In this document: piece after piece, positions 1,000 through 62,827 of the stretch | How positions within the stretch are numbered: position 1 is the first letter of the stretch | Layout: each line of letters opens with the position of its first letter | From: an uncultured Gemmatimonadaceae bacterium | Lineage (GTDB): Bacteria > Gemmatimonadota > Gemmatimonadetes > Gemmatimonadales > Gemmatimonadaceae | Assembly (NCBI GenBank): GCA_963790305.1 | Contig: CAWBOC010000003.1 | Location: 64,001 to 128,000 of the forward strand | Reading direction: 5' to 3' | DNA length: 64,000 nt | Position numbers and translations under genes: made by a program | The notes under the pieces: generated by a model | Seen by the model: the letters and a program-made list of their open reading frames with translations, nothing else | Told to the model about the DNA's origin: nothing | The model's database searches: none

Positions 1000-1055
1000 T
1001 CGAGAAGGCGGAATGCGGAATGCGGAATGAATGGGCATTCCGACCCAGTTCTCGA
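1000..1055. repeat. Intergenic GCGGAAT heptamer repeat with short inverted flanks
   Basis: (GCGGAAT)x3 followed by GCATTCCG, bounded by TCGAGAA...TTCTCGA, between convergent genes. Confidence 0.7.
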
Positions 1056-1067
1056 GCCCGCTTCGTT

Positions 1068-2191
1068 CTATCCCTTCCCGACCGCCAACTCCGCTATCGA
1101 GTGCCTCACCGGTGCGCGCAATGTCGCCGCGGCGCACGACTGCGACTAGCGCATCCACGACCTGCGGGTCGAACTGCGTGTTCGCGTGGCGGCGGAGCTC
1201 CTCGAGCGCTTCCTCGCGCGTCAGCTGCGCCTTTCGATACGGACGCCCGCTCATCATCGCGTCGAAGGCGTCGGCGACGCAGGCGATGCGCGCCTCGCGG
1301 GGAATGCCGTCGCCACTGAGACCGTCCGGCACGCCGCGGCCATCGATGCGCTCGTGATGGGAGCGGACCACGTTGAGCGCAACCGGCGAGTCGCTGAGCA
1401 GCGGCAGCAGAATACGCCACCCGAGCACCGGGTGCGTCATGATGTGCGCGTACTCCTCACCGGTGAGCTTCCCCGGCTTGTTCAGCACGTCTTCGCGCAC
1501 TCCGATCTTTCCAATGTCGTGCAGGTGGCCACCCAGCTCCAGCTGGCGCACCGTGTCCCCATCGATCCCGAGCTCCCGTGCCGACGAGTCCGGACACGTG
1601 GCTCACCCGCACCGAGTGGCCGCGCGTGTACGCGTCCTTCAGCTCCAGCGCATCGGCAAGCGACTGAATGCTGGCGATGAACAGCTCCTCCAGCCGGCGC
1701 GACTGCACGCGCACGCGCTCTTCGAGCGAGTGGTGATACTGCCGATTCTCGAGCACCAGCCGACGTCGCTCGAGCGCCTGCCTCACCCGCGCGCGAACTT
1801 CCTCGAGCACGAACGGCTTGCCAATGTAGTCCATTGCGCCCCGGCCAAGGCATTCGACCGCGACCTCGACCTCCGCGACGGCGGTGATCATGATGACGGC
1901 GATGTCCGGATACCGCTCGCGCACTTCGCGCAGCAGCATCGCGCCGTCCATCTTCGGCATCCGCAGGTCGGAGAGCATGAGGATCACCGGCTCCCGCGCC
2001 AGGATGTCGAGCGCCTCGACTCCCGATCCGCACTCGAAGCAGGTGAAGCCATCGAGCTGCATCAGCCGCACGAGCGCTTGCCGGAGACGCGGCTCGTCGT
2101 CGACCACGAGACACCGTCGCTCATGTCGCTCGTCGCCGTTGGATCCGGCCGTCGCGGACGAGAAACCGCCGTCATAGCGGTGATCGCGCAT
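1068..2191 (-). CDS. Response regulator with REC and HD-GYP cyclic-di-GMP phosphodiesterase domains (frameshifted)
   Basis: REC motifs LVVDDEP, SDLRMPKMDG and KPF, then DAYTRGHSVRV. One extra G near 1583 splits it from LHDIGKIG...HHERIDGRGVPDGL...DAFDAM. GGAGG RBS before ATG 2191. The 3' end is uncertain; a second shift near 1115 would give a stop at about 1068. Confidence 0.85.
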
Positions 2192-2256
2192 CACCGGTCC
2201 TCCCCGCGATAGTGCGGGTCGGTTATCTTGCGCGAACCTACCGTCGGACATGTGTG

Positions 2257-3426
2257 ATGACGAAAGTGTTCGAAGAAGATCTCGCGGCCGGAATCGGCAC
2301 GCGGGCGATTCACGCCGGGCAACGGCCCGAGCCGCTCGCGGGCGCCATCATGACTCCCGTGTACCTGACGTCCACGTACGTGCAGGATGGACTCGGGAAG
2401 CACAAGGGGTACGAGTACGCGCGAAGTCGCAACCCCACGCGGGAGGCGCTCGAGCGGAACGTCGCCGCGCTGGAAGGCGCGCGCCACGGCTTTGCGTTCG
2501 CGAGCGGCACGGCCTGTGTGGATTCGCTGATGAAGCTGTTCAAGGCGGGAGATCACGTCGTCTGCGGAGAAAACGTCTACGGCGGTACGTTCCGGCTCTT
2601 CGATCGGCTGCTCCAAAACTTCGGACTCGAGTTTACCTACGTCGACACGAGGGACCCGAATCGTATCGAGGAAGCCTGCCGAACGCGAACGGTGGCCGTC
2701 CTCGTCGAGACCCCGACGAACCCGCTCATGCGCCTCACCGATCTCAGCGCCGCCGCAGAGATCGCGCATCGAGCAGGCGCGCTGCTCATCGTCGACAACA
2801 CGTTCGCCACACCGGTCTTGCAGCGCCCCTTCACGCATGGCGCGGACATCGTCTTCCACTCGACGACCAAGTATCTCAACGGCCACAGCGACATGATCGG
2901 CGGCATCGCGCTGCTGAACGACGACGATCTCGCGGCCCGCATTCAGTTCATCCAGAACGCGGCAGGTGCAGTACCCGGTCCCTTCGACTGCTGGCTTGCC
3001 CTTCGAGGGACAAAGACGCTCCACCTTCGCGTAGCCGCCCACGACGCCAATGGACGCCAGGTCGCCACGTGGCTCGCCAACAAGATCGGGGTCGAGCGGG
3101 TGATCTACCCAGGCCTTGCGTCACATCCGCAGCACGAGCTGGCCCGCAGCCAGATGTGCGGATTTGGGGGGATGATCACCGTCGAAATGGGCACCAGGGA
3201 CGCTGCCGCCAGGGTCCTCGAGCGAACGCGAATCTTTTCGCTGGCAGAATCGTTGGGAGGAGTCGAGAGCCTCATCAGCCATCCTGCCACGATGACCCAT
3301 GCCTCAGTGCCGCCAGAGCGGCGCACCGCCCTTGGCATCACCGATGGCATGATCCGCCTGTCGTGCGGCGTCGAAGATGTGGGGGATCTGATTGCGGACC
3401 TCGATTACGCCTTCAAGGGCGAATGA
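2257..3426 (+). CDS. Cystathionine gamma-synthase/gamma-lyase family PLP enzyme
   Basis: YARSRNPTR, ETPTNP, DNTFATP, PLP-lysine motif HSTTKYLNGHSD, LAESLGGVESL. Confidence 0.93.
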   Translation: MTKVFEEDLAAGIGTRAIHAGQRPEPLAGAIMTPVYLTSTYVQDGLGKHKGYEYARSRNPTREALERNVAALEGARHGFAFASGTACVDSLMKLFKAGDHVVCGENVYGGTFRLFDRLLQNFGLEFTYVDTRDPNRIEEACRTRTVAVLVETPTNPLMRLTDLSAAAEIAHRAGALLIVDNTFATPVLQRPFTHGADIVFHSTTKYLNGHSDMIGGIALLNDDDLAARIQFIQNAAGAVPGPFDCWLALRGTKTLHLRVAAHDANGRQVATWLANKIGVERVIYPGLASHPQHELARSQMCGFGGMITVEMGTRDAAARVLERTRIFSLAESLGGVESLISHPATMTHASVPPERRTALGITDGMIRLSCGVEDVGDLIADLDYAFKGE

Positions 3427-3516
3427 GGGATTGAGCAGTGAGGTGTGAGGAATCGATCGAATGTGAAGGCATTCCAATCGAATTCCTCACTCCTCAGTCC
3501 TCCGTCCTCATTCGCC
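3418..3516. repeat. Inverted pair of degenerate TGAGGAG-type heptamer arrays
   Basis: GGCGAATGAGG at 3418 is mirrored by CCTCATTCGCC ending at 3516, with TGAGG/CCTCA periodicity in the arms. Overlaps the upstream TGA stop. Confidence 0.75.
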
Positions 3517-3541
3517 GCACCCTCCGCCTTCGAGGCTGAAA

Positions 3542-4549
3542 ATGGCCGACCGTAAGATCCTCACGCAAATCTCGCCGACCGCCTGGGAGCACCCCGCGGA
3601 CCGCGCAGCGCTCCAGACCCTCCGCGCCATTCCCGGCTTCGACGAGGTCGTCCGCAAGATCGCGTCGTTCTTCGGCGAGCGCGGCATCCGCCACCTGTTC
3701 GCGGGCAACGCCGTCCGAGTGGGCCCGCGCCAGCGCCCGAAGCTCTATGCGCTCTATGGCGAAGTCCTCGAAACCATGGACTGGCCCGCGGGGAACGAGC
3801 TCTACGTGACGCAGACACCGGCGGTGAACGCGATGGCGGTGGGCTTCGAGAGACCCTTCATCGTGATCAACTCGGGCCTCCTCGGTCTTCTCGACCGCGA
3901 GGAGCAACGCACCATCCTCGGCCACGAGCTGGGCCACATCATGAGCGGCCACACGACGTATACGACGATGGCGCTCATCCTCCTGACCATCGGCCTGAGG
4001 AATCTTCCCTTCCTCGCCGGGATGGCGCTCCTCCCAATCGAGCTCGCCCTCTTCGAGTGGTATCGCAAGAGCGAGCTGTCCAGCGACCGTGCCGGTCTTC
4101 TCTCCGGACAGGATCCTACGGCGGCAATGATGGCCGAGCTCAAGATGGCCGGCGGGAAGCCGCGTGGCGTCGCCGCGGAGGGACTCGGGCTCGACGACGA
4201 CGAGATCAACCTCGATGAGTTCCTCGTGCAGGCCGAGGAGTACGAGACCGGCGGCACCGCGATCGACAGCGTCTTCAAGTTTCTGAACGTCGCATTCCAG
4301 ACGCATCCCTTCCACACCGTCCGGGCAGCCGAGCTGCATCGCTGGGTGCGGTCGGGCGAGTATTACCGGATTCTCGAAGGTGACTACCCGCGCCGAGGCT
4401 CGGAGCCCGAGCGTCCGCTTCGCCAGGACTACGCGGAGGCCGGCTCGTATTACGAGCAGCAGGCGCGTCAGGCGATGGACCAGGTTGGCGATGTGCTCGT
4501 TCGCGCCAAGGATGCGTTCACCCAGGCGGTTCGCGGCCGGCCGAAATGA
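3542..4549 (+). CDS. M48 family zinc metallopeptidase
   Basis: VNAMAVG, HELGH zinc motif, ELSSDRAG, THPF. Confidence 0.9.
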   Translation: MADRKILTQISPTAWEHPADRAALQTLRAIPGFDEVVRKIASFFGERGIRHLFAGNAVRVGPRQRPKLYALYGEVLETMDWPAGNELYVTQTPAVNAMAVGFERPFIVINSGLLGLLDREEQRTILGHELGHIMSGHTTYTTMALILLTIGLRNLPFLAGMALLPIELALFEWYRKSELSSDRAGLLSGQDPTAAMMAELKMAGGKPRGVAAEGLGLDDDEINLDEFLVQAEEYETGGTAIDSVFKFLNVAFQTHPFHTVRAAELHRWVRSGEYYRILEGDYPRRGSEPERPLRQDYAEAGSYYEQQARQAMDQVGDVLVRAKDAFTQAVRGRPK

Positions 4550-5832
4550 AGGTCCTCCTCGTCGGGAGCGGGGGACGCGAGCACGCACTCGCCTGGAAGT
4601 TCTCCCGTGACGATGAGTCGATTGACCTGATCGCTGCTCCCGGCAACCCGGGAATCGCCGCGCTAGGGCGGTGTGTGAAGGCCGATCCGGCCGACGCCGC
4701 CGCCCTTTTGCAACTCGCCCTCGCCGAAAAGCCCGACCTCACCGTCGTTGGGCCCGAGGCCGCCCTGGCCGCCGGCATCGTCGACCGATTTCGCCAGGCG
4801 TCGCTGCCGATCTTTGGTCCTACGCGCGCCGCTGCTGAGATCGAGACATCGAAGGCGTTCGCCAAGGACCTGATGAAGGCCGCCGGAGTTCCGACCGCTC
4901 GCGCTGTTCGTCACACCGACGCGGCCGCGGCCCATCGGTCGGTTCGCGAATTTGGGGCTCCGGTGGTCGTCAAAGCGTCGGGTTTGGCTGCCGGCAAAGG
5001 CGTCGTCGTCTGCGGGAGCATTGAGGAAGCCGACGAGGCGATCGATTCCATGCTCCTGCGGAGCATTCACGGTACCGCAGGCTCGGAAATACTCGTCGAA
5101 GAGTTCATGCAAGGTGAAGAAATATCCCTGCTTGCGTTGACCGACGGCACCGCCGTGCTCCCGATGCTCGCGGCCCAGGATCACAAGAGGCTCCTCGAGG
5201 GTGACGGCGGACCCAACACCGGTGGGATGGGCGCCTACGCCCCCGTCTCCCTCGCCGACAAGGCTCTCGTCGAACGGATTGTGGCCGAGGTCTTCGCCCC
5301 GACCCTGGACGCGCTGAGAGAGCGGAGAAGCCCATTCACGGGCCTTCTGTACGCCGGTCTCATGATTACCGACGAAGGGCCCAAAGTGGTCGAGTTCAAC
5401 TGTCGCTTCGGGGATCCCGAGACTCAGGCGCTCCTCCCGCTTCTTCGATCGAGCCTCCTCGAGCCCCTGTCAGCGATCGCTCGCGGCGACGGACTGCCGG
5501 ACGACCTGGAGCTCCAATGGCGCAATGCCTTCGCGGTCACGACGGTGGTCGCGGCCGCCGGCTATCCTGAGACACCGCGAAAGGGGGACCTCATCGACCT
5601 CGGGACGATGCCGCCTGACGCGCTTCTCTTCCATGCCGGAACGAGCCTCACGCCATCGGGACAGCTCGCGACCGCGGGCGGCCGGGTCGCCGCGGTCACC
5701 GCCGTCGCGGACAGTTTCGCCGAGGCGTGTCGCCGCAGCGCGGAGGGCGCGGAACAGGTGCGGTTTGCCGGTCGCCACTTCCGATCGGACATCGGGTGGA
5801 GAGAGCTTCACCGTCATGCCCGAGCTTCCTGA
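4546..5832 (+). CDS. purD: Phosphoribosylamine--glycine ligase
   Basis: MKVLLVGSGGREHALAW, KASGLAAGKGV, QDHKR, GPNTGGMGAY, EFNCRFGDPETQ. Confidence 0.98.
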   Translation: MKVLLVGSGGREHALAWKFSRDDESIDLIAAPGNPGIAALGRCVKADPADAAALLQLALAEKPDLTVVGPEAALAAGIVDRFRQASLPIFGPTRAAAEIETSKAFAKDLMKAAGVPTARAVRHTDAAAAHRSVREFGAPVVVKASGLAAGKGVVVCGSIEEADEAIDSMLLRSIHGTAGSEILVEEFMQGEEISLLALTDGTAVLPMLAAQDHKRLLEGDGGPNTGGMGAYAPVSLADKALVERIVAEVFAPTLDALRERRSPFTGLLYAGLMITDEGPKVVEFNCRFGDPETQALLPLLRSSLLEPLSAIARGDGLPDDLELQWRNAFAVTTVVAAAGYPETPRKGDLIDLGTMPPDALLFHAGTSLTPSGQLATAGGRVAAVTAVADSFAEACRRSAEGAEQVRFAGRHFRSDIGWRELHRHARAS

Positions 5833-7773: not shown

Positions 7774-7919
7774 CCCAACGCGCCGTTGCCTCCAAGCGTC
7801 CGCGCTCGTCACGCCTAAGGACTCGCGCCGCACGCGCGGACTGGCCAGCCACTTGCACCTGTGCATCACTGCGTCCAACGGACGCAGAGCGAAGGATGTA
7901 CCAGCGGAGTGGAGGGGGG

Positions 7920-8138
7920 ATGGCGACCACCTGGCAACCGACCATGCTCGTTCAGTGCGTGAGCCTCAAGCCGTGGCTCTCCTATCCAGGCTGTGAAGAG
8001 CCTGGAGGGTGTCACGACCTGACGCTTGGCCGCATCTACGAGCTGCTCGGGATCGAAGCCGATGGCGCGTTCTACCGAATTTTCGATGATTCCGGAGGCG
8101 ATTATTTGTATCCGGCGTCACACTTTCGCGTCGTGTAG
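7920..8138 (+). CDS. Small hypothetical protein
   Basis: GGAGG-rich stretch upstream. Motif LTLGRIY...YRIFDDSGGDYLYPASHF resembles a recurrent small-protein family. Alternative start at 7944. Confidence 0.65.
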   Translation: MATTWQPTMLVQCVSLKPWLSYPGCEEPGGCHDLTLGRIYELLGIEADGAFYRIFDDSGGDYLYPASHFRVV

Positions 8139-8165
8139 CCGAGGAACGACGAAAGGGAGACGGCA

Positions 8166-8246
8166 CGAGGTGCTCAATGTGCTCGAGGTGCTCAAGGGAA
8201 AGCGATTCCCTTCGAGCACCTCGAGCACTTTGAGCACCTCGAGCAC
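8166..8246. repeat. Inverted pair of CGAGGTGCT nonamer arrays
   Basis: CGAGGTGCT-CAATGTGCT-CGAGGTGCT-CAAGGGAA, loop, then TTCCCTTCG-AGCACCTCG-AGCACTTTG-AGCACCTCG, between convergent genes. Confidence 0.85.
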
Positions 8247-8255
8247 GCTTGCACT

Positions 8256-8732: not shown

Positions 8733-8733
8733 G

Positions 8734-13832: not shown

Positions 13833-13920
13833 TGCGATGAAGTTGGTCGAGGTGGCCGAGAGCCGCAAGCGCGCGCGCTGGCTGAAGTTGGACTGTGTAA
13901 ATACCTTTGCCTGATTGAAA

Positions 13921-14046
13921 GGGATCAGGAGTCAGGAGTCAGGAGCCAGGGGGGTTCAGGGTGTTAGGTGAGAGGAACTGCTCTCGCACCCCGACACCTC
14001 GGACCTGAAACCCCCTGATCCCTGACTCCTGACTCCTGACCCCTAG
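13921..14046. repeat. Inverted pair of TCAGGAG heptamer arrays (copy 1)
   Basis: GATCAGGAGTCAGGAGTCAGG...CCTGATCCCTGACTCCTGACTCCTGACCCCTAG, ending immediately before the sigma-factor ATG. Confidence 0.9.
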
Positions 14047-18266: not shown

Positions 18267-18395
18267 AACGGCAGAGACGTCAGATGTCAGAAATACAGAA
18301 TTCAGAATTCAGACAAAGCCACGGCAGCACCATTGGCTCCCTGGTCGGTTCTGAATTCTGAATTCTGTATTCTGACATCTGACATCTCTGCCGTT
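18267..18395. repeat. Inverted pair of CAGAATT/CAGATGT heptamer arrays (copy 1)
   Basis: Left arm AACGGCAGAGACGTCAGATGTCAGAAATACAGAATTCAGAATTCAGA matches the reverse complement of the right arm apart from one substitution and one extra A. Confidence 0.9.
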
Positions 18396-24758: not shown

Positions 24759-24891
24759 GTGGGAACGGAAAGACATCAGATAACAGAACACAGGATTCAG
24801 AATGCAGATGAGTGACGGGGAGCCATTCACTGGCTCCCCGTGGTCGTTTCTGAATTCTGAAACCTGTATTCTGTTATCTGACGTGTTTGCC
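24759..24891. repeat. Inverted pair of CAGAATN heptamer arrays (copy 2) with central GC hairpin
   Basis: Shares GTGGGAACGG, TGGCTCCC and TTCTGAATTCTGAA with the 18.3 kb element. Inner stem ACGGGGAGCCA/TGGCTCCCCGT. Confidence 0.85.
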
Positions 24892-24904
24892 TTGTAGTGA
24901 AATG

Positions 24905-35133: not shown

Positions 35134-35261
35134 CTAGGGGTCAGGAGTCAGGAGTCAGGGATCAGGGGGGTCAGGGATGAGGTTTCAGGAGACGCGCGAA
35201 GCCTTCTCCTCACACCTTCGCCCCGACACCCCCTGATCCCTGACTCCTGACTCCTGACCCC
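35134..35261. repeat. Inverted pair of TCAGGAG heptamer arrays (copy 2)
   Basis: 33-bp perfect inverted repeat (35137-35169 and 35229-35261). Bases 35134-35169 are the exact reverse complement of 14011-14046. Confidence 0.92.
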
Positions 35262-41755: not shown

Positions 41756-41854
41756 ACGGCATAACCACAGAGGCACAGAGGGCACGGAGAACGGCGAACT
41801 GCTGTTGAGCAGTCGCCGTTCTCCGTGCCCTCTGTGCCTCTGTGGTTATGCCGT
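41756..41854. repeat. Long palindrome built on CACAGAGG(G) repeats (copy 1)
   Basis: 42-bp perfect inverted repeat ACGGCATAACCACAGAGGCACAGAGGGCACGGAGAACGGCGA. Contains the TAA stop of the minus-strand gene. Confidence 0.95.
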
Positions 41855-43936: not shown

Positions 43937-43987
43937 CCGCGGAAGGTAGCAAACAAGAACGGGCCGCCGTAAGGCGACCCGGACTCA

Positions 43988-44066
43988 AATGCTGAATGCG
44001 TAACACGGAACGCGGAAGCCGATCGGCTGGCCCTTATTCGACTTCCGCGTTCCGCATTCGTCGTTC
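43988..44066. repeat. Degenerate inverted GCGGAAY heptamer element
   Basis: 12-bp inverted repeat GGAACGCGGAAG / CTTCCGCGTTCC with flanking decayed heptamers. Confidence 0.7.
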
Positions 44067-49944: not shown

Positions 49945-50762
49945 GCCGCGAAGCTCCGCTCGGGCCCGGCGACAAACGCGCTCTTGTCCCGCGACCAAAT
50001 GAGGGTCGCGACGTGAATCTTTTGCTCGCTGAGCTCGATGACGTTGATACTCGACGGCCTGCCGCCGCGCGAACGGTTCGAGACCGTACCGGCGGTCGAG
50101 ATGACGGTGCCCCGTTTCGTGTGCTCGATGTAGTGCACCGCCTCCTGATGGTCGTGGCCGCACAGCACCACGTGGACGCCGAGATCGGCGAACGCGCCGA
50201 GGATGCGCGGTGTGTTGCGCAGGCCGTGCCGCTGCGAGAGCTCGCCCTTCACGGGATTGTGATGCATGACGATGACGCGCCAGTCGTCAGGCGGAGACGT
50301 GGCAAATTCCTTCTCGGCGCGCTCGAGCTGGGATTTCTTGAGGGCCCCGATAATGCCAATGTCGCGCAGGTTCCAGGTGAGCGTATGACGCGACACGCCC
50401 TGCGCGGTCAGAAGCCCGACGAAGGTGGCGCCGGGAACGCGCAGCACCGGCTCCAGCTCCTTGTCGATGTACGCCATGTAGTTCGCGTACATGGCGTCAC
50501 TCGAGCCGATCGCCATGGGGGCGCGCCACCACTTCACGTCGTGGTTCCCGGGCACGACGATCGTCTTGCTGACCCGCTGCGCGTGGCGGATGAACGCGCG
50601 GGCGCGCTGGAACTCGCCCGAGCGCGCCCGCTGTGACAGGTCGCCGGAAATGGCGACGACGTCGAATTTCTCCTCCTGAATGACCGCCTCGATCGCCTCG
50701 ATCTGCTCAGGGACGGCGGGCTTCCCGAAGTGCAGGTCGGAGGCGTGGAGGACTCGGGTCAT
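49941..50762 (-). CDS. Metallophosphoesterase (CpdA/Icc-like)
   Basis: SDLHFG, SGDLSQRA, PGNHD, MHH, GHDH. Confidence 0.9.
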   Translation of the reverse strand: MTRVLHASDLHFGKPAVPEQIEAIEAVIQEEKFDVVAISGDLSQRARSGEFQRARAFIRHAQRVSKTIVVPGNHDVKWWRAPMAIGSSDAMYANYMAYIDKELEPVLRVPGATFVGLLTAQGVSRHTLTWNLRDIGIIGALKKSQLERAEKEFATSPPDDWRVIVMHHNPVKGELSQRHGLRNTPRILGAFADLGVHVVLCGHDHQEAVHYIEHTKRGTVISTAGTVSNRSRGGRPSSINVIELSEQKIHVATLIWSRDKSAFVAGPERSFAA

Positions 50763-51779
50763 CGCAACCTCGCGATGATCGCGCTGGTGAACTCGTCGGT
50801 GGTTGCCGTCCCCCCGAGATCGCCGGTCAGCGTCTTTCCCTCCCGGATCGTGGCGTAGAGCGCGTCGCGAATCCGCGTCGCGCGCGCGTGGTCTCCCACA
50901 TGATCGAGCATCATGCATGCCGCGAGCAAGAGTGCGCCGGGATTGGCGACGCCCTTGGTCGCGATGTCGGGCGCTGTCCCGTGCACTGCCTCGAAGATCG
51001 CCGCCTTCGCGCCAATGTTCGCGCCTGGCGCGAGTCCCAGGCCACCGACCAGCCCCGAGATCTGATCGGACAGGATGTCACCGAACAGGTTCGTCGTCAC
51101 GATGACATCGAACGCCTCGGGGCGCATTACGAGACTCATTGCCATCGCATCGACGATCTTCTCCTCGACCTCGATGCGTCCATCATACTGTTTCGCGATT
51201 TCACGCCCCACGTCGAGGAACAGCCCCTGTGAGAACTTGAGGATGTTGGCCTTGTGGACGATGGTCACCTTCCGGCGCCCATGCTTCACCGCGTACTCGA
51301 ACGCGTACCGGTGAATGCGCTCCGATCCTGCCCTCGTGATGATCGCCACCGATTCCGCGGCGGCATGAGGATCGTCTCCGATCTTGATGTAGTGCTCGAC
51401 GCCGACGTAGAGTCCCTCGGTGTTCTCCCGCACGAGCACGAGGTCGACGTTGTCGTAGCGCCGGCGTCCCGGCGTCACCGACTTCGCGGGGCGAACGTTG
51501 GCGTAGAGATCGAACTCCTTTCGCAGGGCGACGTTCACCGAGCGGTAGCCCGAGCCGACGGGCGTCTCGAGCGGACCCTTGAGCGCCAGGTGCGTCCGCG
51601 AGATCGACGCGAGCGTCTCGTCAGGCATCGGATCGTCGTGGCTCGGCGACGGCGGCCATGCCGGCGAGCTTTCGATCCCATGCGATGTCGGCGCCGGCCG
51701 CCTCGACGATGCGAACGGTCGCCTCGGTGATGCCGGGGCCGATGCCGTCGCCGGGAATGAGCGTTATCGGGATGGGCAT
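50759..51779 (-). CDS. Isocitrate/isopropylmalate dehydrogenase family (NAD-IDH-like), frameshifted near 51640
   Basis: N-terminus MPIPITLIPGDGIGPG lies in another frame and joins ALKGPLETP, RENTEGLY, VHKANILK, NLFGDILSD, FEAVHGTAPDI. Confidence 0.9.
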
Positions 51780-51816: not shown

Positions 51817-51856
51817 GAGAACTGCGAGCTGCGAACTGCGAACTGCGCAGTCGTTC
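51817..51856. repeat. GAACTGC heptamer array
   Basis: GAACTGC-GAGCTGC-GAACTGC-GAACTGC, then a short mirror GCAGTCGTTC next to a stop codon. Confidence 0.65.
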
Positions 51857-52500: not shown

Positions 52501-52764
52501 GAGGGTCCAGGTTTGGTCGAGCGAAAAGCTAACTGGAGAAACGGCAAAGATGACAGAGCATTCAGAATGCTGAGGTAACTCGAGGAATCGAGTGACACGA
52601 GGCGCGACGGCCGTCCCGTCGCGCACGTCGTAGCGTCTTGATCCGCATTCGAGCATTCCTGAACGTCTCGTCATCTTTGCCGTCTCACGAACTCAACGGG
52701 TTTGACCAGCGACGCGTGCCACGCGCAATTTACCGCGCGCCAATACCCCAAGAGCCTCGTACCC

Positions 52765-54831
52765 ATGCGGAAGCCGCTGTCGATCCTCGGGTGGACCGCC
52801 GTTTCGTTGCTCGGCGCGGGCGCGTTCGCGTGGCTCGCGCTCTCGCGTGGCGAGACGGTGAGCGCCGCGTGGCTCCTCATCGCCGCGCTGTGCACGTACG
52901 CGGTCGCCTACCGGTTCTACAGCCGGATCATCGCCGCGAAAGTCTTCGCCCTCGACGCGCGGCGCCCAACACCATCGCAGCGACTCGAGGATGGGTGCGA
53001 CTACGTTCCCACCAATCGGTGGATCGTCTTCGGACATCACTTCGCCGCGATCGCGGGACCTGGGCCCGCTCGTCGGACCAACCCTGGCGGCGCAGTTCGG
53101 CTTCCTCCCCGGCGCACTCTGGATCATCGTCGGCGTCGCGCTCGGCGGCGCCGTGCAGGATTTCGTCATCCTCGCCTCGTCCGTTCGGCGCAACGGGAAA
53201 TCGCTCGGGCAAATGGCGAAGGACGAGATTGGTCCGGTCGCAGGTTTCACCGCGCTCGTCGCCGTCCTGGGCATCATGATCGTGCTCATCTCCGTGCTGG
53301 CGCTCGTGGTGGTGAACGCACTGCGCGCGAGCCCGTGGGGAACCGTGACGATCGCGCTGACCATTCCGATCGCGATGCTGCTCGGCGTCTACCTCCGCTG
53401 GATTCGTCCCGGGAAAGTACTCGAGGCGTCGGCGATCGGGGCTCGTGCTGCTGGTATTGTCCGTGTACGCCGGACAGTGGGTGGCGGCCCGGCCCGCGCT
53501 CGCCGAGGTGTTCACGCTCGAGGGAACGACGCTGGCGTGGTGGATCATGGCGTACGGGTTCGCCGCCTCGGTGCTGCCGGTGTGGCTGCTGCTCGCGCCG
53601 CGCGATTACCTGTCGGCGTTCGTGAAGATCGGTGTGGTCGTCGCGCTTGGCGTTAGGCATCATGATCTCGCTTCCCCCGCTCCAGATGCCCGCGCTCACC
53701 CAGTTCGTCGATGGCACGGGGCCGATTTTCGCCGGCAAGGTGTTCCCCTTCGCGTTCATTACCATTGCGTGCGGCGCCATCTCGGGGTTCCACGCGCTCG
53801 TGGCCTCGGGAACCACCCCGAAGATGCTGGAGAACGAGACCGACGCACGCCCCATCGGCTACGGCGCAATGCTGATGGAATCGCTGGTGGCCGTGATGGC
53901 ACTGATCGCAGCGTGCGTCCTCACGCCGGGACTGTACTTCGCGATCAATGCGCCGGTGGCTGCGCTGGGAACAACGGCGGAATCCGCGGCGACCGCGATC
54001 GCTCAATGGGGATTCGCGATCACGCCGGCCGAGATTCACGCCGTCGCCGCGCAGGTGGGTGAGGAGACGATGCTCTCGCGTACCGGCGGAGCGCCAAGCC
54101 TCGCTGTCGGAATGGCCAACATCTTCTCGCAGGTCCTCGGCGGGAGCGGCGCGATGGCGCTCTGGTACCACTTCGCCATCATGTTCGAGGCGCTGTTCAT
54201 CCTGACCACCCTCGACGCGGGCACGCGCGTGGGCCGCTTCATGCTTCAGGATCTCGGCCGTCACGTGTGGGAGCCGTTCGGCCGCGTCTCATGGTATCCG
54301 GCCATCGTGCTGTCGAGCGCGATCTTCGTCGCGATGTGGGGCCACTTTCTCTATCAGGGCGTCACCGATCCCCTGGGCGGCATCAACTCGCTCTGGCCGC
54401 TCTTCGGCATCGCGAACCAGCTGCTCGCGGCGGTCGCGCTGTGCGTGGGAACGACGGTCATCATCAAGATGGGGAAGGGTCGTTATGCGCCGATCACCCT
54501 GCTCCCACTCGCCTGGCTGGTGGTGGTGACGATGGTCGGCGGATGGGCGAAGATCTTCTCCGACGACCCGCGGCTGGGCTTTCTTGCCCACGCGCGCCTG
54601 CTGGCGGATCAGCTCGCATCAGGCGTCCTGCCGCGCGGGGCAGCCGACGCCGCGGCGGCCGCGCGCATGATCTTCAACGATCGCCTCGACGCCGCGGTCG
54701 CCGCGTTCTTCATGATCGCCGTCTTGGTGATTCTCGCCGACTCGGCGAAGGAGTGGGTGGCCGTCCTTCGAGGGCGGAAGCCGGCGCGAAGCACGGAAGT
54801 GCCTTTCGAGGCTGGTTTGCTCGCTGACTAG
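52765..54831 (+). CDS. cstA: Carbon starvation protein CstA (peptide/pyruvate transporter), three frameshifts
   Basis: FGHHFAAIAGPG/PLVGP, LPVWLLLAPRDYLS, ACGAISGFH, FEALFILTTLDAGTR, LWPLFGIANQLLA. +1 shifts near 53065, 53440 and 53646. Confidence 0.93.
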
Positions 54832-54896
54832 AACGCGGAATGCGGAATGCGGATAGGAATTGAAACCCTTCTTCCGCGTTCCGCATTCCGAATTCG
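54831..54896. repeat. Inverted pair of GCGGAAT heptamer arrays
   Basis: GAACGCGGAATGCGGAATGCGGA...TTCCGCGTTCCGCATTCCGAATTC, starting at the cstA stop. Confidence 0.85.
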
Positions 54897-54904
54897 ACCG
54901 CCGT

Positions 54905-56570: not shown

Positions 56571-56749
56571 AGAGCGTGCTGGCAGTGATCGCGCACGCAC
56601 TGCGCGTCGTCGCCGGTGCACCGCGATACGACGCGTACCGCGCACACATCGCGCGACACCATCCGCAGCGCGAGCCAATGTCGCGCGCCGAGTTCGAGCG
56701 CGCGCGGCTCGACGATCGATATTCGAAACCGGGGGCGAAATGCTGTTAA
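56567..56749 (+). CDS. YbdD/YjiX (DUF466) CstA-associated small protein
   Basis: GAPRYDAYRAH...HP..EPMSRAEF...RY...CC* signature. Confidence 0.88.
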   Translation: MKSVLAVIAHALRVVAGAPRYDAYRAHIARHHPQREPMSRAEFERARLDDRYSKPGAKCC

Positions 56750-57363
56750 GGATTGCGGAATGCGGATTGCGGGTTTCATGCGTGCTGGTCCTGTGGGCAC
56801 TCACCCTTCCCGCGCAAGAAGCGACCACGACTCCCACGGCCCCGAGCCTGACCGTCGAGCAGCAGATCACGGTCGCGGTGCTTCCGCTTCCCAACGACTT
56901 GCGCGCTGGCGCCACGGTGCTCGGCTACGGAACGGACGGAAAGCTCGCCCCGCTGCGCAAGGGAACGGGGGACATGACGTGCCTGGCGCCCAACAAGACC
57001 GCGTCGCGCTTTCACGTCGCCTGCTACCACAACTCGCTCGAGCCGTTCATGGCGCGTGGGCGTGCACTTCGCACGAGCGGTGTGAATGGAGACGCGGTCG
57101 ACAGCGCGCGTTTCCGTGAGATCAAGGCGGGGCAGCTCGCGGTTCCCAAGGGCCCGGCGTCGCTTTATTCGCTCACCGGTGATTGGAGCACCCTCGACGC
57201 GACGGCGCTGACCGCCAATGGCGCGCGCAGGCTGTTCGTCGTCTACATCCCGTTCGCGACATCGCAAACGACGGGACTCTCCGACAAGCCCGCGCGCGGA
57301 ACACCCTGGATCATGGGCGCCGGGACACCCAAGGCGCACATCATGTTCGTGCCGGAGATGTAG
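56740..57363 (+). CDS. Exported hypothetical protein
   Basis: Signal peptide then AVLPLP, MTCL, HVACYH, PWIMGAGTPKAHIM. Start is ATG 56740 or TTG 56767. Confidence 0.75.
   Translation: MLLRIAECGLRVSCVLVLWALTLPAQEATTTPTAPSLTVEQQITVAVLPLPNDLRAGATVLGYGTDGKLAPLRKGTGDMTCLAPNKTASRFHVACYHNSLEPFMARGRALRTSGVNGDAVDSARFREIKAGQLAVPKGPASLYSLTGDWSTLDATALTANGARRLFVVYIPFATSQTTGLSDKPARGTPWIMGAGTPKAHIMFVPEM
56751..56772. repeat. Short GCGGAWT heptamer run
   Basis: GATTGCGGAATGCGGATTGCGG immediately after the ybdD stop. Confidence 0.55.
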
Positions 57364-58535
57364 CGCTCGGAACGACGATCCACAGGCCGATACTCGCCAG
57401 CATCGCGGCCGCTGCGCCGACACTGAAGGCGGTGAACGCGCCGAAGCGATCGTACATGGCTCCAAAAATCACCGACGCCGGGAGTGCGCCGAGTCCGATG
57501 GCGAGGTTGTACCAGCCGAAGGCTGCGCCTCGTCGCGAGGCGGGCACGATGTCGGCGACGAGCGCACGCTCGACGCCCTCGGTGAGCCCGAAGTACACTC
57601 CGTAGATCGCGAACAGCACCCAGATGTGCCACGCGTCGGTGGCATGACCGAACATCAGGTAGACGAGAGCATAGACCATCCACCCGGCGACGATCACCGG
57701 CTTGCGTCCGCGCCGGTCGGAGAGAATGCCGCCGGGAGTACTCGAGAGCGATTTCACGAGATGCAGCATCGCCCAGAGTACCGGCAAAAGCGCGGCGCCC
57801 ACCCCGAGCTCAGTCGCGCGGAGCAGGAGGAAGGCGTCGGTCGAGTTGCCTAACGTGAAGAGCAGCAGCACCGCGAGGTAGGCGAAGAAGCGACGACCCA
57901 AAGGTGCTGAGAGGCGCTGGAGGCGCTAGAGGCGCTAGAGGCGCTGGAGGCGCTGGAGGCGCTGGGCGGGGCTCACGAACACCGAGGATCAGCGTGATCA
58001 CGGCGACCGCGGCGGGGATCGCGGCCAGCCAGAAGATCGTGCGGACGCCCACCCCCATCCGCGACATCAGGATGTACACGATGAGTGGACCGATCACTGC
58101 GCCGGCGTGGTCTGCGGCGCGGTGAAACCCGAACGCCCGTCCCCGCAGTGCGGGATCGACCGAATCGGCGATGAGCGCATCGCGCGGCGCCCCGCGAATC
58201 CCCTTCCCCACGCGATCCGTCACTCGAATGAGGAGCACGTGCGCCCCGGTCTGCGCGATCGCCACGAGCGGGCGAACGGCCGACGCGAGCGCATATCCGG
58301 CGACGACCAGCGGCTTGCGTCGCCGGGTGCGATCGGACAGCCACCCGCTCGCCAGCTTGAGCAGTGCGGAAACGGAGTCCGCGGCTCCCTCGATAGCCCC
58401 GACGAAGGCGGCGCTCGCGCCGAGCGTCGCCGTCAGGAACAGCGGGAGGAGCGGATAGATCATCTCGCTCGACGCGTCGGTGAAGAAGCTCACCGCGGCC
58501 AGGGCGAGGACGTTTCGACCGAGCGCGGGCCTCAC
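57341..58535 (-). CDS. MFS transporter, frameshift near 57900
   Basis: SFFTDASSEMIYPLLP, GWLSDR, DRVGKGIRGAPRDALIAD. Removing one T joins it to LFTLGNSTDAFLLLR and GILSDRRGRK. Confidence 0.9.
57910..57965. repeat. In-frame GAGGCGCTR nonamer array inside the MFS central loop
   Basis: Six units GAGGCGCT(G/A) encoding PAPPAPPAPLAPLAPPAPL on the minus strand. Confidence 0.9.
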
Positions 58536-58549
58536 ACGTCAAGGTGCGT

Positions 58550-60137
58550 TCACGCCAGCCCCATCCCCCACCGCGCCAGGGGCGTCGGCAGCGCGCCGTA
58601 CGACAGCAGCTCATCGTGGAAGGCGCGCAGGGAGAACATCGCGCCGCGCGCCTCGCGCGCGTCGTCGCGCAGGCGCAGGATCTCACGACGGCCGACCGCG
58701 TAGCAGAGCTGATAGGTGGGAAACGCGCAGTAGCGAACGGCCTCCGCGCGTGCGGCGCCCTCCTCGAGGCCGAGCTCGTCACGCAGGATCGCCGAGGCGG
58801 TGTCGACCGTCATGCCCTTCGTGTGCAGCGACACGTCGAGAATCACCCGCAGGGCGCGCCACAGCAGGTGGTGCACCTGGAAGAAGCGGGCGGCGGGATC
58901 GCTGATGAAGCCCTGCTCGGCCATGAGGTTCTCGCAGTACAGCGCCCAGCCCTCCTGCGACGCCGGACTCGCCAGGACGCGTCGCACCGGCCGCGGCAGC
59001 GTACACGCCGTCACGATCTGGAGATGGTGGCCGGGAATACCCTCGTGCAGCGCCGTGCTGGGCAGCTCGGCGCGGCAGTGCAGCCGCCATGGCTCGTTAG
59101 GCTGCGGCAGGGTGACGAAGAAGGTACCACGCGCATCGCCGTCGAAGGCGGCCGGTCCCTGGTAGGCGGCGAACGGGATGAGGGCGCGAAGGAAGTCGGG
59201 CGTCGGCGCGACGACGAGCTCTCCCTCGGGGACGGTGACCAGCCCACGCTCGGCGGTGAAGTCGAGCGCCGCCCGCATCGCGCTTCGATACTCGTCCACG
59301 GCCGTGTCACGGGTCGGCGTGTCCTCGCGCAGGACGCGCACGACGTCGCGCCACGGCGTATTCGGGACGAAGCTCGGCCGCGAGACGCTCGAGCTCGGCA
59401 ATCGCTTCGGCGCGCAATCGCTCGCCGAAGCGCAGGAGCTCGTCGGCGTTCTCACGGATCATGTGCGCGGTGTGGAGCTTGAGGTCGAACAGCTCACGCC
59501 CCAACCCGAAGTTCCCTTCCTCGGTCGGCTCCAGGAGCGCAAGCGCATCTCCAAAACGGTGAAGCGCATCCACCGCCGTGTCGCGCGCTTCGGCGAGCGC
59601 AATTGGATCGACGGGAAGATTGACCTTCCCGAGCCCATCGCGAAGCAGCGAGACCCCGCCCGCGATCATGGCTCGCGCCGTATCGAGAAACACGGTCAGC
59701 GGCTCGGTCAGCGCCGCGGCGGCCTCGTCGAGAAAACGCGGCATGGCCTGCACCCGCGCCAGGAGCGCCGCCCCGCGACGCGCCGGATCGCCAGACTGCC
59801 GCGCGAGGAGCAGATGGATGCCGTTCAGTGCATAGAGGAGCGCATGCGTCGGATTGCGTGCGTGCGGCCTCTCGCGCTCGAGGATCAGCAGGTCATGACG
59901 CGCCGCGTGCAGCGTCGCGGTCCGGTCGATCTCGTCGTCGAGGGAGGCGGCCTCGACCTCCTCGAGACTCGCCGTGTACGACCGCAGCGCAGCGGCGTAC
60001 TCGCGCAGCGATGCGGGGTCGAAGCGCGGGAGCTCGGGGTCGAATTCCTGCCGGCCGACGTACGTGCCCTCGACCGGGTTGATACGCCAACGGAGATCGA
60101 GGTACCCCTCGAGAACGTCGGCGAGTGGCTCGCTCAC
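58550..60137 (-). CDS. DUF885 family protein, frameshift near 59365
   Basis: HEGIPGHHLQ, EGWALYCE, WRALRVILDVSLH, FHDELL.YGALP; no signal peptide. Confidence 0.88.
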
Positions 60138-61384
60138 GCCCGCGCGGGCTGCCGTTTTTGTTCGCCGATCATCGCGTGCAGCTCGTCATCGCGGATCACG
60201 CGATTCATCCGCTTGGCCGCATCGAAGAGCAGTTGGCAGAGGGCATCGTCGGCGGGATCGTAGCCGTGCTCTTCGAGCCAGCACTTCACGTTCGAGAGCC
60301 CCGAGACGGGCGAGATCTCGATGCGCTGCGCAAGGCCGAAATCCCCGGCGGGCACTCCGGAGTAAATGCGATCAGCGAGCCAGGCGTGCCCTTTCTTTCG
60401 TGCCTTGATGATCGCGGCGGCGTGCACCCCAGTTCCGGTGCGAAAGGCGTCGTCGCCGAGCACGGGGTAGCTGGGCGGAATCGGGACGCCGCAAGCGCTC
60501 GACGCGAGATGCGAGTACTCGGGGAGCTTGCTGAGGTCGTGCCGGTGCGCGCCGAGCAGCTTGAGATTGATCAGCAGGAGATCCATCTCGGCATTGCCGA
60601 CACGCTCGCCGATGCCTAACGCGGTCCCATGCACGCGGTCGACCCCCTCCTCGATCGCCGCCAGACAGTTGGCGAGCCCGAGTCCGCGGTCGCGGTGGCC
60701 GTGCCAGTCGAGCTTCACGTCCTCGCCGCTGGGGTCGATGATCTCATCGCGTACGAACCGGACGAGTCGACGCACGCCATCGGGCGTCGCGTGCCCAACC
60801 GTATCGGCGAGACAGAGCCGCCGGGCGCCCCACCGAATCGCGTTGCCGTAGAGCGCCTTCAGCGTGTCGGGCGCGGCGCGCGTCGTATCCTCGGTGACGA
60901 ACATGACCGGCAGCCCCTCACCCACGGCGAACGTCACCGCCTCCTCGCTCACGCGCAACATCTTCTCCAGCGTCCAGTCCTCGGCGTACTGGCGAATCGG
61001 CGAGGAGCCGATGAAGGTCGCCGCCTCGATGGGAATGCCGGCCTCCTGCGAGATGCGCGCAACCGGCTCGACGTCGGAGATGACCGTTCGGGCCGCACAG
61101 TTCGCCTCGAGGTCGAGGCCGGCGGCGGCGATCTCCTTGGCGAGCGCCAGCGTATCGGCGCGGGCGCGTGGTCCGGCGCCGGGGAGACCGATGTCAGCGG
61201 ACGCGATCCCGAGGTCGACCATCAGGTGGAGCAGGCGCTTCTTGTCGTCGATGACCGGGTCGGTCACCGACGGGCATTGCAGCCCGTCTCGCAGCGTCTC
61301 GTCGTTGAGCTCGACGTGGCAAGCTCCCCAGTCGAACGGGGCGCCCTGCTGGTTCCAATCGTGGATCAGGTCCTGTTCGCGCAT
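60134..61384 (-). CDS. LeuA/DRE-TIM family Claisen-condensing synthase lacking the C-terminal regulatory domain
   Basis: DETLRDGLQ, EDTTR, LADTVG, HGHRDRG, GIGERVGN, GVHAAA; 416 aa. Confidence 0.88.
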   Translation of the reverse strand: MREQDLIHDWNQQGAPFDWGACHVELNDETLRDGLQCPSVTDPVIDDKKRLLHLMVDLGIASADIGLPGAGPRARADTLALAKEIAAAGLDLEANCAARTVISDVEPVARISQEAGIPIEAATFIGSSPIRQYAEDWTLEKMLRVSEEAVTFAVGEGLPVMFVTEDTTRAAPDTLKALYGNAIRWGARRLCLADTVGHATPDGVRRLVRFVRDEIIDPSGEDVKLDWHGHRDRGLGLANCLAAIEEGVDRVHGTALGIGERVGNAEMDLLLINLKLLGAHRHDLSKLPEYSHLASSACGVPIPPSYPVLGDDAFRTGTGVHAAAIIKARKKGHAWLADRIYSGVPAGDFGLAQRIEISPVSGLSNVKCWLEEHGYDPADDALCQLLFDAAKRMNRVIRDDELHAMIGEQKRQPARA

Positions 61385-61525
61385 GGAGAGAATCTAGAAG
61401 GCGGGCGCTAGAGGCGCTAAGGGCGCTAGAGGGCGCTAGAGGCGCTGCGTCAGGCTTGCAGCGCCCTAGCGCCCCTAGCGCCTCTAGCGCCTCTAGCGCC
61501 CCTAGCGCCTAGATTCACTCCATGC
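61381..61525. repeat. Inverted pair of GAGGCGCTA nonamer arrays spanning the whole divergent intergenic region
   Basis: (GGCGCTAGA)n...(TAGCGCCYC)n; the ends GCATGGAGAGAATCTAG and CTAGATTCACTCCATGC are inverted repeats (16/17). Confidence 0.92.
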
Positions 61526-62711
61526 TCCGGCAGCTCTGGCACCACCCCGCCCTTCGGCAGGCGCGGCTACAGCTCGCGTCACGCGACCAGGACATCGTGC
61601 TCGAGCAGATCGCGGTGTCGGAAATCGCCGCGCCCACGGGCGAAGAAAATGAGCGGGCGCAGTGGGTGGCCCAGCGGTTCGAAGCGCTGAAGCTGAGCGA
61701 CGTACGCATCGACCAAGCGGGCAATGTGATCGGACGACGGCGCGGGAGGACGGATGGCCCCGCGGTGCTCGTATGCGCACATCTCGACACTGTCTTCCCG
61801 CGTCAGACGCGCGTCAGCGTGGCGCGACTCGGGAACCGCCTCGCTGGACCCGGCATCGGCGACAATGGGCGCGGCGTGGCGGCAATGCTGGCCCTCGCTA
61901 CCGCGCTCGACGGCGCGACATTGGTCGACCGAGCGTCCCGTCGATTTCATTGGCACGACCGGTGAGGAAGGCGCCGGCGATCTCCGCGGCGCGAAGCACC
62001 TGTTCGCGCACGAGGGACGCGATGCGGCGGCGGCGGTCATCCTCGACGGCGCGGGGGACGAGCGCATCGTTCATCGTGCTCTCGCGTCTCGCCGCTACCG
62101 ACTGACCTTCGAGGGACCGGGCGGGCACAGCTGGACGGCGTTCGGAGTGCCTAACGCCGTGCACGCCGCGGCGGTCGCGACGGCGCGGCTCGCGCGACTC
62201 GTCCTTCCGACGACGCCGCGCACGACGCTGTCGGTCGGACGCATCGGAGGCGGCATCTCCGTGAACTCCATCCCCGACCGCGCGTGGCTCGAGGTGGACG
62301 CGCGGTCAGCGTCAGCCGGCGATGATCTCGCGCCTCGATCGCGACGTGCGTGAAGCCGCCGCAGCGGGCGCCATGGAGGAAAACGCGCGGCGGGCCGTGG
62401 GCGCGATACCGTTGACGTACACCGTGGAGGTAATCGGCGAGCGACCGGGTGGCGAAACGCCGGTCGATCACCCGCTCGTGCTCGCCGCCATGGAGGCGAC
62501 GCGCCTCATCGGTCGGAACCCCGAGCTCGCGATCGCCTCGACCGACGCCAACATCCCGATCAGCCTCGGCATCCCCGCCGTAGCGATCGGTGCGGGCGGA
62601 CGTGGCGGGGATGCGCACACGCCCGGGGAGTGGTTCGAGAACACCGAGGGCACTCTTGGGTTGAGTCGGGCGCTGGGTGTGGTGGTGAATGCGGCAGGGC
62701 TGGTCGTGTAG
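61522..62711 (+). CDS. M20/M25/M40 family metallo-hydrolase, two frameshifts
   Basis: AHLDTVFP, GPGIGDNGRG, TGEEGAGDLRG, GPGGHSW, STDANIP, AHTPGEW. +1 shifts near 61924 and 62319. Confidence 0.88.
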
Positions 62712-62717
62712 GGGCGC

Positions 62718-62827
62718 AAGAGCATAACCACAGAGGCACAGAGGACACAGAGGAAAACCCGCACTGCAAAGCGCTTTGCAGTGCGGGTCTTCCTCTGTGT
62801 CCTCTGTGCCTCTGTGGTTACGCTCTT
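62718..62827. repeat. Long palindrome built on CACAGAGG repeats (copy 2)
   Basis: 110-bp loopless palindrome with two mismatches, sharing GCATAACCACAGAGGCACAGAGG with the 41.8 kb copy. Confidence 0.95.

Follow-up and report, generated by a model that had tools for sequence, protein, structure and literature searches.

Hairpin elements in the window

The window, a stretch of 64,000 nucleotides from the genome of an uncultured Gemmatimonadaceae bacterium (G000), contains numerous hairpin-forming arrays of short tandem units; coordinates are window positions, and no element is assigned a strand ("." throughout). A preliminary description had reported about 13 intergenic elements of this kind, and arrays were present at all 13 named sites. 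Mirrored arms were clear at 11 of them (16 to 59 matched positions, purine fraction of the left arm 0.61 to 0.74), and at 1.0 and 51.8 kb only a short mirror exists, as had been stated. A nested element (52538..52686) and two solo arms (56750..56772 and 57902..57965) had been overlooked.

The first element (1004..1043), a GCGGAAT-family left array with a short mirror, lies directly behind a TAG stop codon at a convergent junction, which measures 3 nt in the congener G003 and carries the TCAGGRG family in G001, G004, and G005. A hairpin of the TGAGGAG/GAGGAAT family (3420..3514) overlaps the stop codon of the upstream gene, and a related unit was present in the five of five congeners located. 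Two hairpins are built from 9-mers. That of the CGAGGTGCT family (8163..8244), at a convergent junction where congeners carry three other unit families, has a 92.9% identical copy on contig C5; that of the GAGGCGCTA family (61403..61509) lies at a divergent junction, occupied in G001 by the GGGCCAA family. Two TCAGGAG-family hairpins were found, one at a divergent junction that is without an element in G003 (13920..14044) and another with a copy on contig C1 that is 95.3% identical over 128 nt (35137..35261). Similarly, the CAGAATT family contributes a hairpin at 18267..18395, where G008 has no element, and one behind the stop codon of the IMP dehydrogenase gene (24764..24893), where G003 has none.

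The CACAGAGG family, of the GxxExxY type, is represented by two near-perfect palindromes. In the first (41756..41854), all 47 of 47 arm positions are paired, and the arms are the same as those flanking a GxxExxY gene elsewhere in the genome (G000:C5:638951). The second (62711..62835) lies behind a TAG stop codon and has a 92.2% identical copy on C5; its junction is empty in G003 and holds other families in G001 and G005. A degenerate GCGGAA-type hairpin (44006..44054) corresponds to a GAGGAAC unit in five of five congeners, and the arms of a GAACTGC half element, a left array with a short mirror (51819..51855), enclose nested elements of other families in G008. In the nested element at 52538..52686, ends of the CAGAATT family enclose other arms and a hairpin center; G001 and G003 lack this element. 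It is followed by a GCGGAAT-family hairpin at a convergent junction (54831..54895), where G005 and G008 carry other units, and by a solo left arm of the GGATTGC/GCGGATT unit with no mirror (56750..56772), in whose place the same two genomes have a GAACTGC-type arm. Finally, a solo GAGGCGCTG/A array of seven copies (57902..57965), also present in G005 and G008, adjoins the predicted start of an MFS transporter open reading frame (ORF).

The units had been regarded as unrelated. Several distinct families do exist; however, several units differ from each other by only one or two changes, and a YYAG core recurs in many. Likewise, the purine-rich arm, said always to come first, does so in 371 of 374 elements of G000 but in only 133 of 151 cassettes of other genomes, the TCAGCCN group being purine poor. 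On the evidence of the latter cassettes, purine precedence was rejected as the underlying rule, and a fixed motif orientation is preferred. In agreement with the preliminary description, a Pfam scan revealed no transposase among the 69 window ORFs. The genes neighboring the elements have no function in common.

Genome-wide census and placement

The genome-wide scan proposed in the preliminary description yielded at least 374 hairpin elements in G000 with a strict detector, which found none in either of two order-5 Markov genomes of equal length. The figure is a lower bound, since this detector recovers only 8 of the 13 window sites. Their arms are tandem, nonpalindromic 7- to 10-mers, and the hairpins fold. 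Most elements (355 of 374) lie between genes, within 10 nt of the gene end for 254 of 444 neighboring 3' ends. Occupancy was 128 of 486 for convergent junctions, 188 of 2,719 for codirectional ones, and 39 of 485 for divergent ones. Copies in frame were also found within the genes for IleRS, MetH, and an ABC ATPase; at the IleRS site, family members have GGGAATC- and GGGGATT-type pairs (G015, and locus L073 of G054 at this site, were left out of the comparisons).

Gene-filled copies

The window elements had been supposed to be empty, nonautonomous copies, with similar arrays flanking four-helix-bundle and GxxExxY genes in other genomes. Both suppositions proved correct: gene-filled copies with the same arms are present in G000, and all 10 of its PF05635 and PF13366 genes lie inside or against the same arrays. 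Among relatives in other GTDB genomes, 61 of 80 genes lie between inverted arrays, versus none of 70 distal-flank controls, and six of the eight four-helix-bundle genes examined on cyanobacterial plasmids are flanked by inverted heptamer arrays.

The first cargo protein belongs to the PF05635/TIGR02436 family and matches the XCC0516 structure (2gsc; E value, 4e-19). Its AlphaFold model is a confident four-helix bundle (pLDDT, 94.6), and the Avd profile NF033474 scores 28 to 29, below its cutoff of 80. We know of no catalytic role for PF05635. For its part, the GxxExxY protein (PF13366/TIGR04256) has no solved structural relative by sequence. The D, E, and K residues of D..ExK, the motif criterion for PD-(D/E)xK nucleases, are kept in at least 90% of 32 proteins, and the protein is a predicted nuclease. 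The dN/dS ratios of the two kinds of protein, here called helpers, range from 0.04 to 0.14 in 13 groups; they are under purifying selection. Three of the six PF05635 genes of G000 match the model only partly and look frameshifted; the assembly splits housekeeping genes too, so these frameshifts are either real or assembly errors.

The genes between facing arms encode only these two protein families, with no other type of cargo. Widely spaced pairs lacking an IVP or GxxExxY gene were resolved as neighboring or nested elements or as ordinary genes between half elements; the exception is one small ORF, flanked at C7:189.6k by arms of the GCGGAAT unit. No cognate transposase was found among the genes between facing arms or the window ORFs. 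The G000 genome (94% complete) gave no match to reverse transcriptase (PF00078) or to Y1/HUH transposase (PF01797), the latter profile giving control matches in 6 of 14 genomes.

Turnover between congeners and loci

Alignment of orthologous junctions, also proposed at the outset, revealed empty sites as well as occupied ones, the latter with a hairpin of the same or a different family or with a gene-filled copy; the elements are not fixed. Unrelated families occupied the same junction in 24 of 51 located comparisons between close relatives, as read by eye. Filled copies of G005 and G008 occupy junctions at which G000 has empty hairpins of the same family. Whole elements recur at unrelated loci as 92 to 98% identical copies, and 94 of 259 centers, nonrepetitive and common across loci, fall into 15 clusters. 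One G008 cassette has an identity of 0.90 to a cassette elsewhere in its own genome, versus 0.71 to that of its sister at the same site. Between sister genomes at 93% identity, sites are kept and centers are rewritten. The pairs G004/G008 and G001/G006 showed only rewriting and one replacement, with no fresh insertion with clean ends, and there was no target-site duplication at k values of 2 to 8, where observed and shuffled counts were equal (e.g., 29 versus 26.6 of 349 at k = 4). Among the sequencing runs listed, none of RNA contained the window, and contigs from four soil runs yielded fragments only, with no joint cleanly skipping an element; neither result has a bearing on the claim.

Fixed sites, the lack of cargo-bearing copies, and random arm polarity had been named in advance as pointing to ordinary terminators or slippage products; none of the three was found. 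The hairpin form and the enrichment at convergent junctions would suit ordinary bidirectional terminators or chance slippage products arising separately at each site, a reading that we consider highly improbable given the empty simulated genomes and the copies at divergent junctions and within genes. Filled copies, wholesale replacement between congeners, and centers shared across loci refute such an origin, and single copies may still act as terminators.

An unlikely explanation, and one compatible with the reading preferred below, is that the arrays form a regulatory network serving the host, in which the helpers would be sequence-specific nucleic acid binders reading arrays at transcript ends, with effects on termination or mRNA stability, and the host would spread useful sites. 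The proximity to 3' gene ends, with convergent junctions the most occupied, and the purifying selection on the helpers are in accordance with it, as are the RNA binding of the related Avd pentamer (10.1101/2023.10.23.563531) and the frequent location of Xanthomonas heptamer arrays at transcript ends (PMC4692102). However, the transcribed strand shows no G.U preference, with 139 G.T to 138 A.C, and no bias from RNA-level pairing; unrelated families occupy one junction in close relatives, copies lie in frame in IleRS, MetH, and the ABC ATPase, and the neighboring genes lack a common function.

Correspondence between units and proteins

In the protein tree, the TCAGGRG, GGGCCAA, GAGGCGCT, CAGAATT, and GCGGAAT/GAGGAAC units each correspond to one supported clade, and the GAGGCGCT clade occupies four different sites in five congeners. 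Protein identity also predicts unit similarity, even below 65% identity (130 heptamer cassettes; Mantel rho, -0.42; P = 0.001, with related rows). The number of copies was in agreement with gene content for GGGCCAA, whose pattern occurs 78 to 221 times in the five congeners with the cognate gene and 0 or 1 time in the four without it (agreement, nine of nine), the gene holders not being one clade on the species tree. Similarly, the GAGGCGCT pattern occurs 185 to 301 times in four gene holders and 0 to 11 times in four genomes in which the gene was not found; a G007 variant of this unit occurs 47 times in that genome. The fit was poorer for TCAGGAG (35 occurrences in G001 and 45 in G002, with no cognate gene found in either genome) and for CACAGAG (20 times in G005, where no GxxExxY gene was found, and twice in G003, a gene holder). 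Four PF05635 genes are present in G028, and three GxxExxY genes each in G011 and G018, yet 100 kb of each genome held no element. In line with the pairing, 124 kb of G022, in which neither helper gene was found, held none.

Matching of clades and units also results when gene and arms are transferred together as a single piece, and the nine congeners do not count as independent. Residues conferring specificity are not claimed, because the columns tracking the unit are confounded with the tree. A query with a 9-mer-clade protein against 301 genomes of the phylum returned mostly heptamer cassettes, at 48 to 63% identity; the 9-mer arms therefore seem confined to the genus.

Host slippage, template switching, and ectopic gene conversion might alone drive these dynamics, the genes being passengers of ancient cassettes kept for an unrelated job. 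Compensatory arm changes in the CACAGAGG family (53 two-sided versus 20 one-sided, with about 4 expected) are in excess, as template switching would give; homology suffices for the swapping of centers, and some families persist where no gene was found. We nevertheless regard this alternative as quite unlikely, since it leaves unexplained the restriction of cargo to two protein families, the tracking of protein identity by unit similarity at 40 to 60% identity, and the absence of GGGCCAA exactly where the cognate gene was not found.

Proposed mechanism

Taken together, the window elements are probably gene-less members of several hairpin families, with a single small helper gene (PF05635 or PF13366) per family that likely keeps the family copying. 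The best reading is a partnership like that of REPINs and RAYTs, with nontransposase helpers, that spreads mostly by recombinational copy-in. Common arms, a clade for each unit, swaps of centers and cargo, nesting and replacement, copying of whole elements, and the lack of target duplication are observed; from the sequences we infer the chemistry of copying, in which the helpers have a putative role.

The helper, a pentameric Avd-like ring (PF05635) or a PD-(D/E)xK nuclease (GxxExxY), would recognize its own tandem unit on an extruded or single-stranded DNA hairpin and provoke a break or a stalled fork. In the frequent route, host repair would copy in another family member, with the arrays as homology handles, rewriting centers and arms and moving the single cargo gene between sites. 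More rarely, a copy would be inserted at or inside another hairpin, giving new sites, nesting, and family replacement. Only insertions that do no harm, immediately downstream of stop codons or within protein loops with the reading frame kept, would survive selection. In population terms, the system would work like REPIN/RAYT, without an HUH transposase.

Comparison with known systems

REPINs are nonautonomous, extragenic inverted doublets that form hairpins (Bertels and Rainey 2011, PMC3116915; 10.1101/2021.07.10.451892). As described in the available text of these reports, they also resemble the present elements in having several groups per genome, each with its own low-copy helper, singlets as remnants, nesting, and long coevolution of repeat and protein. 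Inverted, hairpin-forming, extragenic, multicopy repeats were found here too, with one low-copy, coevolving helper per group, TCAGGAG and CACAGAG being exceptions. In contrast, G000 has no RAYT (Y1/HUH) match, its arms are tandem 7- to 10-mer arrays whereas REPs are palindromic, and the helper lies within the full element and is found at different sites in different congeners, whereas that text describes RAYTs as nonjumping.

ORF-bearing intervening sequences (IVSs) of 23S rRNA encode the same protein family (S23p) in a long stem-loop (Warrier et al. 2016, PMC4990558), and rRNA insertions, including those of CPR bacteria, likewise show ORF-bearing and ORF-less forms with a sporadic distribution (PMC4990558; 10.1101/2024.02.27.582315). 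Here, only filled copies have the S23p/PF05635 ORF in a stem-loop, the window copies being ORF-less; unlike IVSs, the elements are flanked by protein genes rather than lying in 16S or 23S rRNA, number hundreds of copies, and have tandem-array arms and no RNA-pairing strand bias. IVSs are removed from the RNA by RNase III. The available text of those two reports describes neither tandem arms nor chromosome-wide empty copies.

Heptamer repeats are known from Xanthomonas (GGGAATC) and Nostoc [GGGGA(C/T)T] (Rehm et al. 2015, PMC4692102) and from Beggiatoaceae (TAACTGA; MacGregor 2015, PMC4679880). They too form short arrays near stop codons and inverted pairs (70 in Xcc); their main texts treat one unit at a time and do not contain "four helix." The pentameric, positively charged, nucleic acid-binding Avd of diversity-generating retroelements (DGRs) (10.1101/2023.10.23.563531) belongs to a fold family homologous to that of the PF05635 helpers (NF033474, below cutoff); unlike in DGRs, which combine Avd with a reverse transcriptase and TR/VR, no reverse transcriptase was found in G000.

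Other classes offer partial likenesses. Cyanobacterial STRRs are short heptamer arrays; neither these nor REP elements had been judged an obvious match to the layout. The above heptamer units GGGAATC, GGGGAYT, and TAACTGA are absent among the G000 units, and the arms are not palindromic. MITEs are short, noncoding, multicopy elements with inverted ends; in the present elements, however, there is no target-site duplication, no cognate transposase was found among the genes between facing arms or the window ORFs, and in-place replacement dominates. Rickettsia palindromic elements lie in frame in conserved enzymes, as do some copies here, which differ in their tandem-array arms, many interchangeable families, and linked helper genes.

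The elements do not conform to the definitions of REPINs, MITEs, IVSs, and DGRs and are set apart from them. IVS genes, single heptamer families, and REPIN logic are already in print separately; the pairing of repeat family and helper was not found in the main texts searched, largely of nonsubscription journals, and appears to be new. More tentatively, the elements may represent a widespread class of transposase-free selfish DNA made up of many unit/protein pairs. In each pair, the protein, either an Avd-like pentamer or a very small PD-(D/E)xK nuclease, would read a code of tandem 7- to 10-mers and drive hairpin copying. The unexplained heptamer repeats found in cyanobacteria, Xanthomonas, and elsewhere might then share their origin with ORF-bearing rRNA IVSs in such a class, which might also offer a natural collection of small rings that bind DNA in a sequence-specific manner. 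PF05635 and PF13366, very common families with no assigned function, and the bacterial excess of heptamers would then become one testable system; if the helpers are irrelevant to copying, the class reduces to an undescribed repeat family. Because the predicted target flanks each helper gene on both sides, binding and mobilization are directly assayable with cognate versus noncognate arrays. The elements rewrite gene ends and add peptide loops to essential enzymes, and they therefore shape proteins besides intergenic DNA.

Distribution of the elements in the window and in the genome

All 13 sites at which the preliminary description had placed inverted-array elements carried arrays, with a full mirrored arm at 11 of them and a short mirror at 1.0 and 51.8 kb. 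The window also contains two solo arms and, at 52538-52686, a nested element, none of which the description had listed. A strict genome-wide search, which required a tandem array with a period of 7 to 10 and an inverted exact 11-mer match at most 130 nt away, identified 374 elements in 4.31 Mb; two order-5 Markov simulations gave no hits. The purine-rich arm came first in 371 of the 374, in agreement with the polarity noted for the window, and no transposase was found among the 69 window ORFs, as had been stated. Beside one element lies a short separate hairpin (AACGGGCCGCCGTAAGGCGACCCG, 43957-43982 of the window), which is kept in several congeners and may be a terminator or a small repeat of another kind; a similar hairpin forms the centre of the element at C2:171239.

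According to gene calls made in this analysis, 188 elements fell at 2,719 co-directional junctions, 128 at 486 convergent ones and 39 at 485 divergent ones, the remainder being called inside genes (16) or at contig edges (3). An array stood within 10 nt of 254 of 444 neighbouring 3' ends. In the TCAGGRG family, 26 of 87 elements have a first unit formed by the host stop codon, and 46 of the 87 stops are TAG (955 of 3,703 genome-wide). Several of the 16 intragenic calls were genuine in-frame, translated copies, others gene-call artefacts; the former included C9:64859-64922, C9:978883-978938 and C10:112689-112765, within IleRS, MetH and an ABC ATPase linker (identified from motifs). With YYAG units, including TCAGGRG, a CTGA, CTAG or CTAA recurs at 7-nt intervals along the right arm, and three copies therefore place a stop codon in every frame; the units occurring in frame within genes lack these stop codons. 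Purifying selection would retain copies after stop codons and in tolerant loops. A role in host regulation is an unlikely reading of the elements.

Putative helper genes and their pairing with repeat units

The association of such arrays with four-helix-bundle and GxxExxY genes, suggested in the preliminary description for other genomes, was borne out in this one. Profile searches yielded six PF05635 and four PF13366 matches (also TIGR02436 and TIGR04256), and all ten genes touched arrays, eight lying between facing arms (filled copies, or cassettes) and two, both GxxExxY, against complete hairpins. The ten genes had ten different units, together covering the abundant empty families. Neither a reverse transcriptase nor a Y1 transposase was found in this 94% complete genome. 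The four-helix-bundle protein matched the solved structure XCC0516 (E = 4e-19), described as a toroidal pentamer (PMC4990558) and related to the RNA-binding Avd pentamer (10.1101/2023.10.23.563531). GxxExxY proteins retained a D..ExK motif. Both helper types were under purifying selection (dN/dS of 0.04 to 0.14 in 13 groups). Three four-helix-bundle genes seemed frameshifted, and the same assembly splits housekeeping genes, apparently including isocitrate dehydrogenase-like, CstA and DUF885 genes (50762-51779, 52991-54828 and 58553-60137 of the window), which suggests indel errors. The nearest named relatives of one cassette gene (90 to 91% identity) were labelled Gemmatimonadaceae.

A small unannotated ORF (about 70 to 86 amino acids) between facing GCGGAAT arms at C7:189553-189906 is a possible third cargo type, the only candidate seen. 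By eye, TAnnnT-like hexamers were found a few bases before the cargo start codon at loci L001, L004, L010, L143, L147 and L157, which suggests an internal promoter and a putative leaderless mRNA for several cargo genes.

In a tree of 65 proteins, with a unit called for 58, unit families corresponded to protein clades, across different sites too. Unit distance tracked protein identity. The GxxExxY proteins formed two clades, with GAT units and with GAG/AAG units. Of 80 proteins from various phyla that are related to the TCAGGAG helper, 61 were encoded between inverted arrays, in 58 cases heptameric and mostly xxAGG; relatives of the CAGAATT helper had TCAGCCN-type units. YYAG occurred on the first-arm strand of 78 of 130 heptamers (related rows), compared to 10.5% at random. 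GGGCCAA abundance agreed with gene presence in nine of nine genomes of the genus. Within the genus, the abundance of GAGGCGCT agreed too when the variant of congener G007 was included. All four elements in 100 kb of genome G020 had the unit type of its own cassette, and G022, with no helper gene found, had none in 124 kb. However, TCAGGAG was common in G001 and G002, where a search found no gene, CACAGAG fitted poorly in G003 and G005, and G028, G011 and G018 carried genes but had no element in 100 kb each.

Copying and replacement of elements

Elements were copied whole. Twenty-one pairs shared 92% identity or more along 75 nt or more. In the pairs inspected, the similarity stopped at the outer array edge, except for one pair in a larger duplication. 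Of 259 centres of at least 25 nt, 94 grouped in 15 clusters, each confined to one unit family. Direct repeats at element ends equalled those of shuffled controls (k = 2 to 8), with no target duplication. Mismatches in the arms were not biased towards G.U on the transcribed strand (139 versus 138). Two-sided compensatory changes were more frequent than independence predicts; the excess was strong for CACAGAGG (53, with about 4 expected) and modest for four-helix-bundle-type families. Conversion independent of any protein is a doubtful account of the elements, slightly less likely than host regulation.

Five congeners (78 to 88% identity) were compared by eye at the 13 junctions, and 51 of the 65 possible comparisons were located. 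In 19 of these the family was unchanged or related, in 24 the unit differed, in 6 there was no element, and 2 were unclear. Elements also nested, three deep in G008 at the 51.7-kb junction, and at C7:121.2k of the present genome a CAGAATT element enclosed a GxxExxY-type one. In sister genomes at 93% identity, sites and families were shared and centres were rewritten.

Cargo was exchanged as well. The counterparts, in the present genome, of congeners' filled cassettes were empty hairpins of the same family (two sites) or of another or related family (four sites), or nothing. About 2.2 kb past the window end, at C3:130210-130270, lies an empty GCGGAAT hairpin, at whose junction G004 and G008 hold a filled cassette of a divergent four-helix-bundle clade. 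One G008 cassette was 0.90 identical to another of its own genome versus 0.71 to the sister's at the same site. The IleRS loop was surveyed by eye in 49 genomes of the family, of which 47 were located, with L073 left out. In-frame inverted heptamer pairs of varied units occurred in about 13, and others had inserts without repeats or a short loop. In the MetH linker, all eight congeners that could be located carried such a pair, again judged by eye, and at least five units were represented. Twenty of the loci in the IleRS/MetH survey had been chosen for longer inserts.

Taken together, helper-provoked, repair-mediated copying of hairpins is the reading we consider probable. The helper would recognise its own unit on the DNA hairpin and may provoke a lesion or stall there, which host repair would resolve by copying from, or insertion into, another hairpin. 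Ordinary terminators are a very improbable explanation of the elements.

Comparison with known systems

REPIN-RAYT (PMC3116915) is similar in working, but the elements failed its defining tests. The rRNA intervening sequences have the protein in common with the elements, but not the location, and the footprint of a MITE is absent. Cyanobacterial STRR and Rickettsia palindromic elements are further classes for comparison. No description of the repeat-protein pairing was found in the literature searched; published heptamer families look like members described one unit at a time (PMC4692102, PMC4679880). Inverted heptamer arms were present at six of eight cyanobacterial plasmid genes examined. 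At two cyanobacterial plasmid loci (L215 and L222), four-helix-bundle cassettes with long heptamer arrays lay between cas6 and cas4 of two CRISPR loci.
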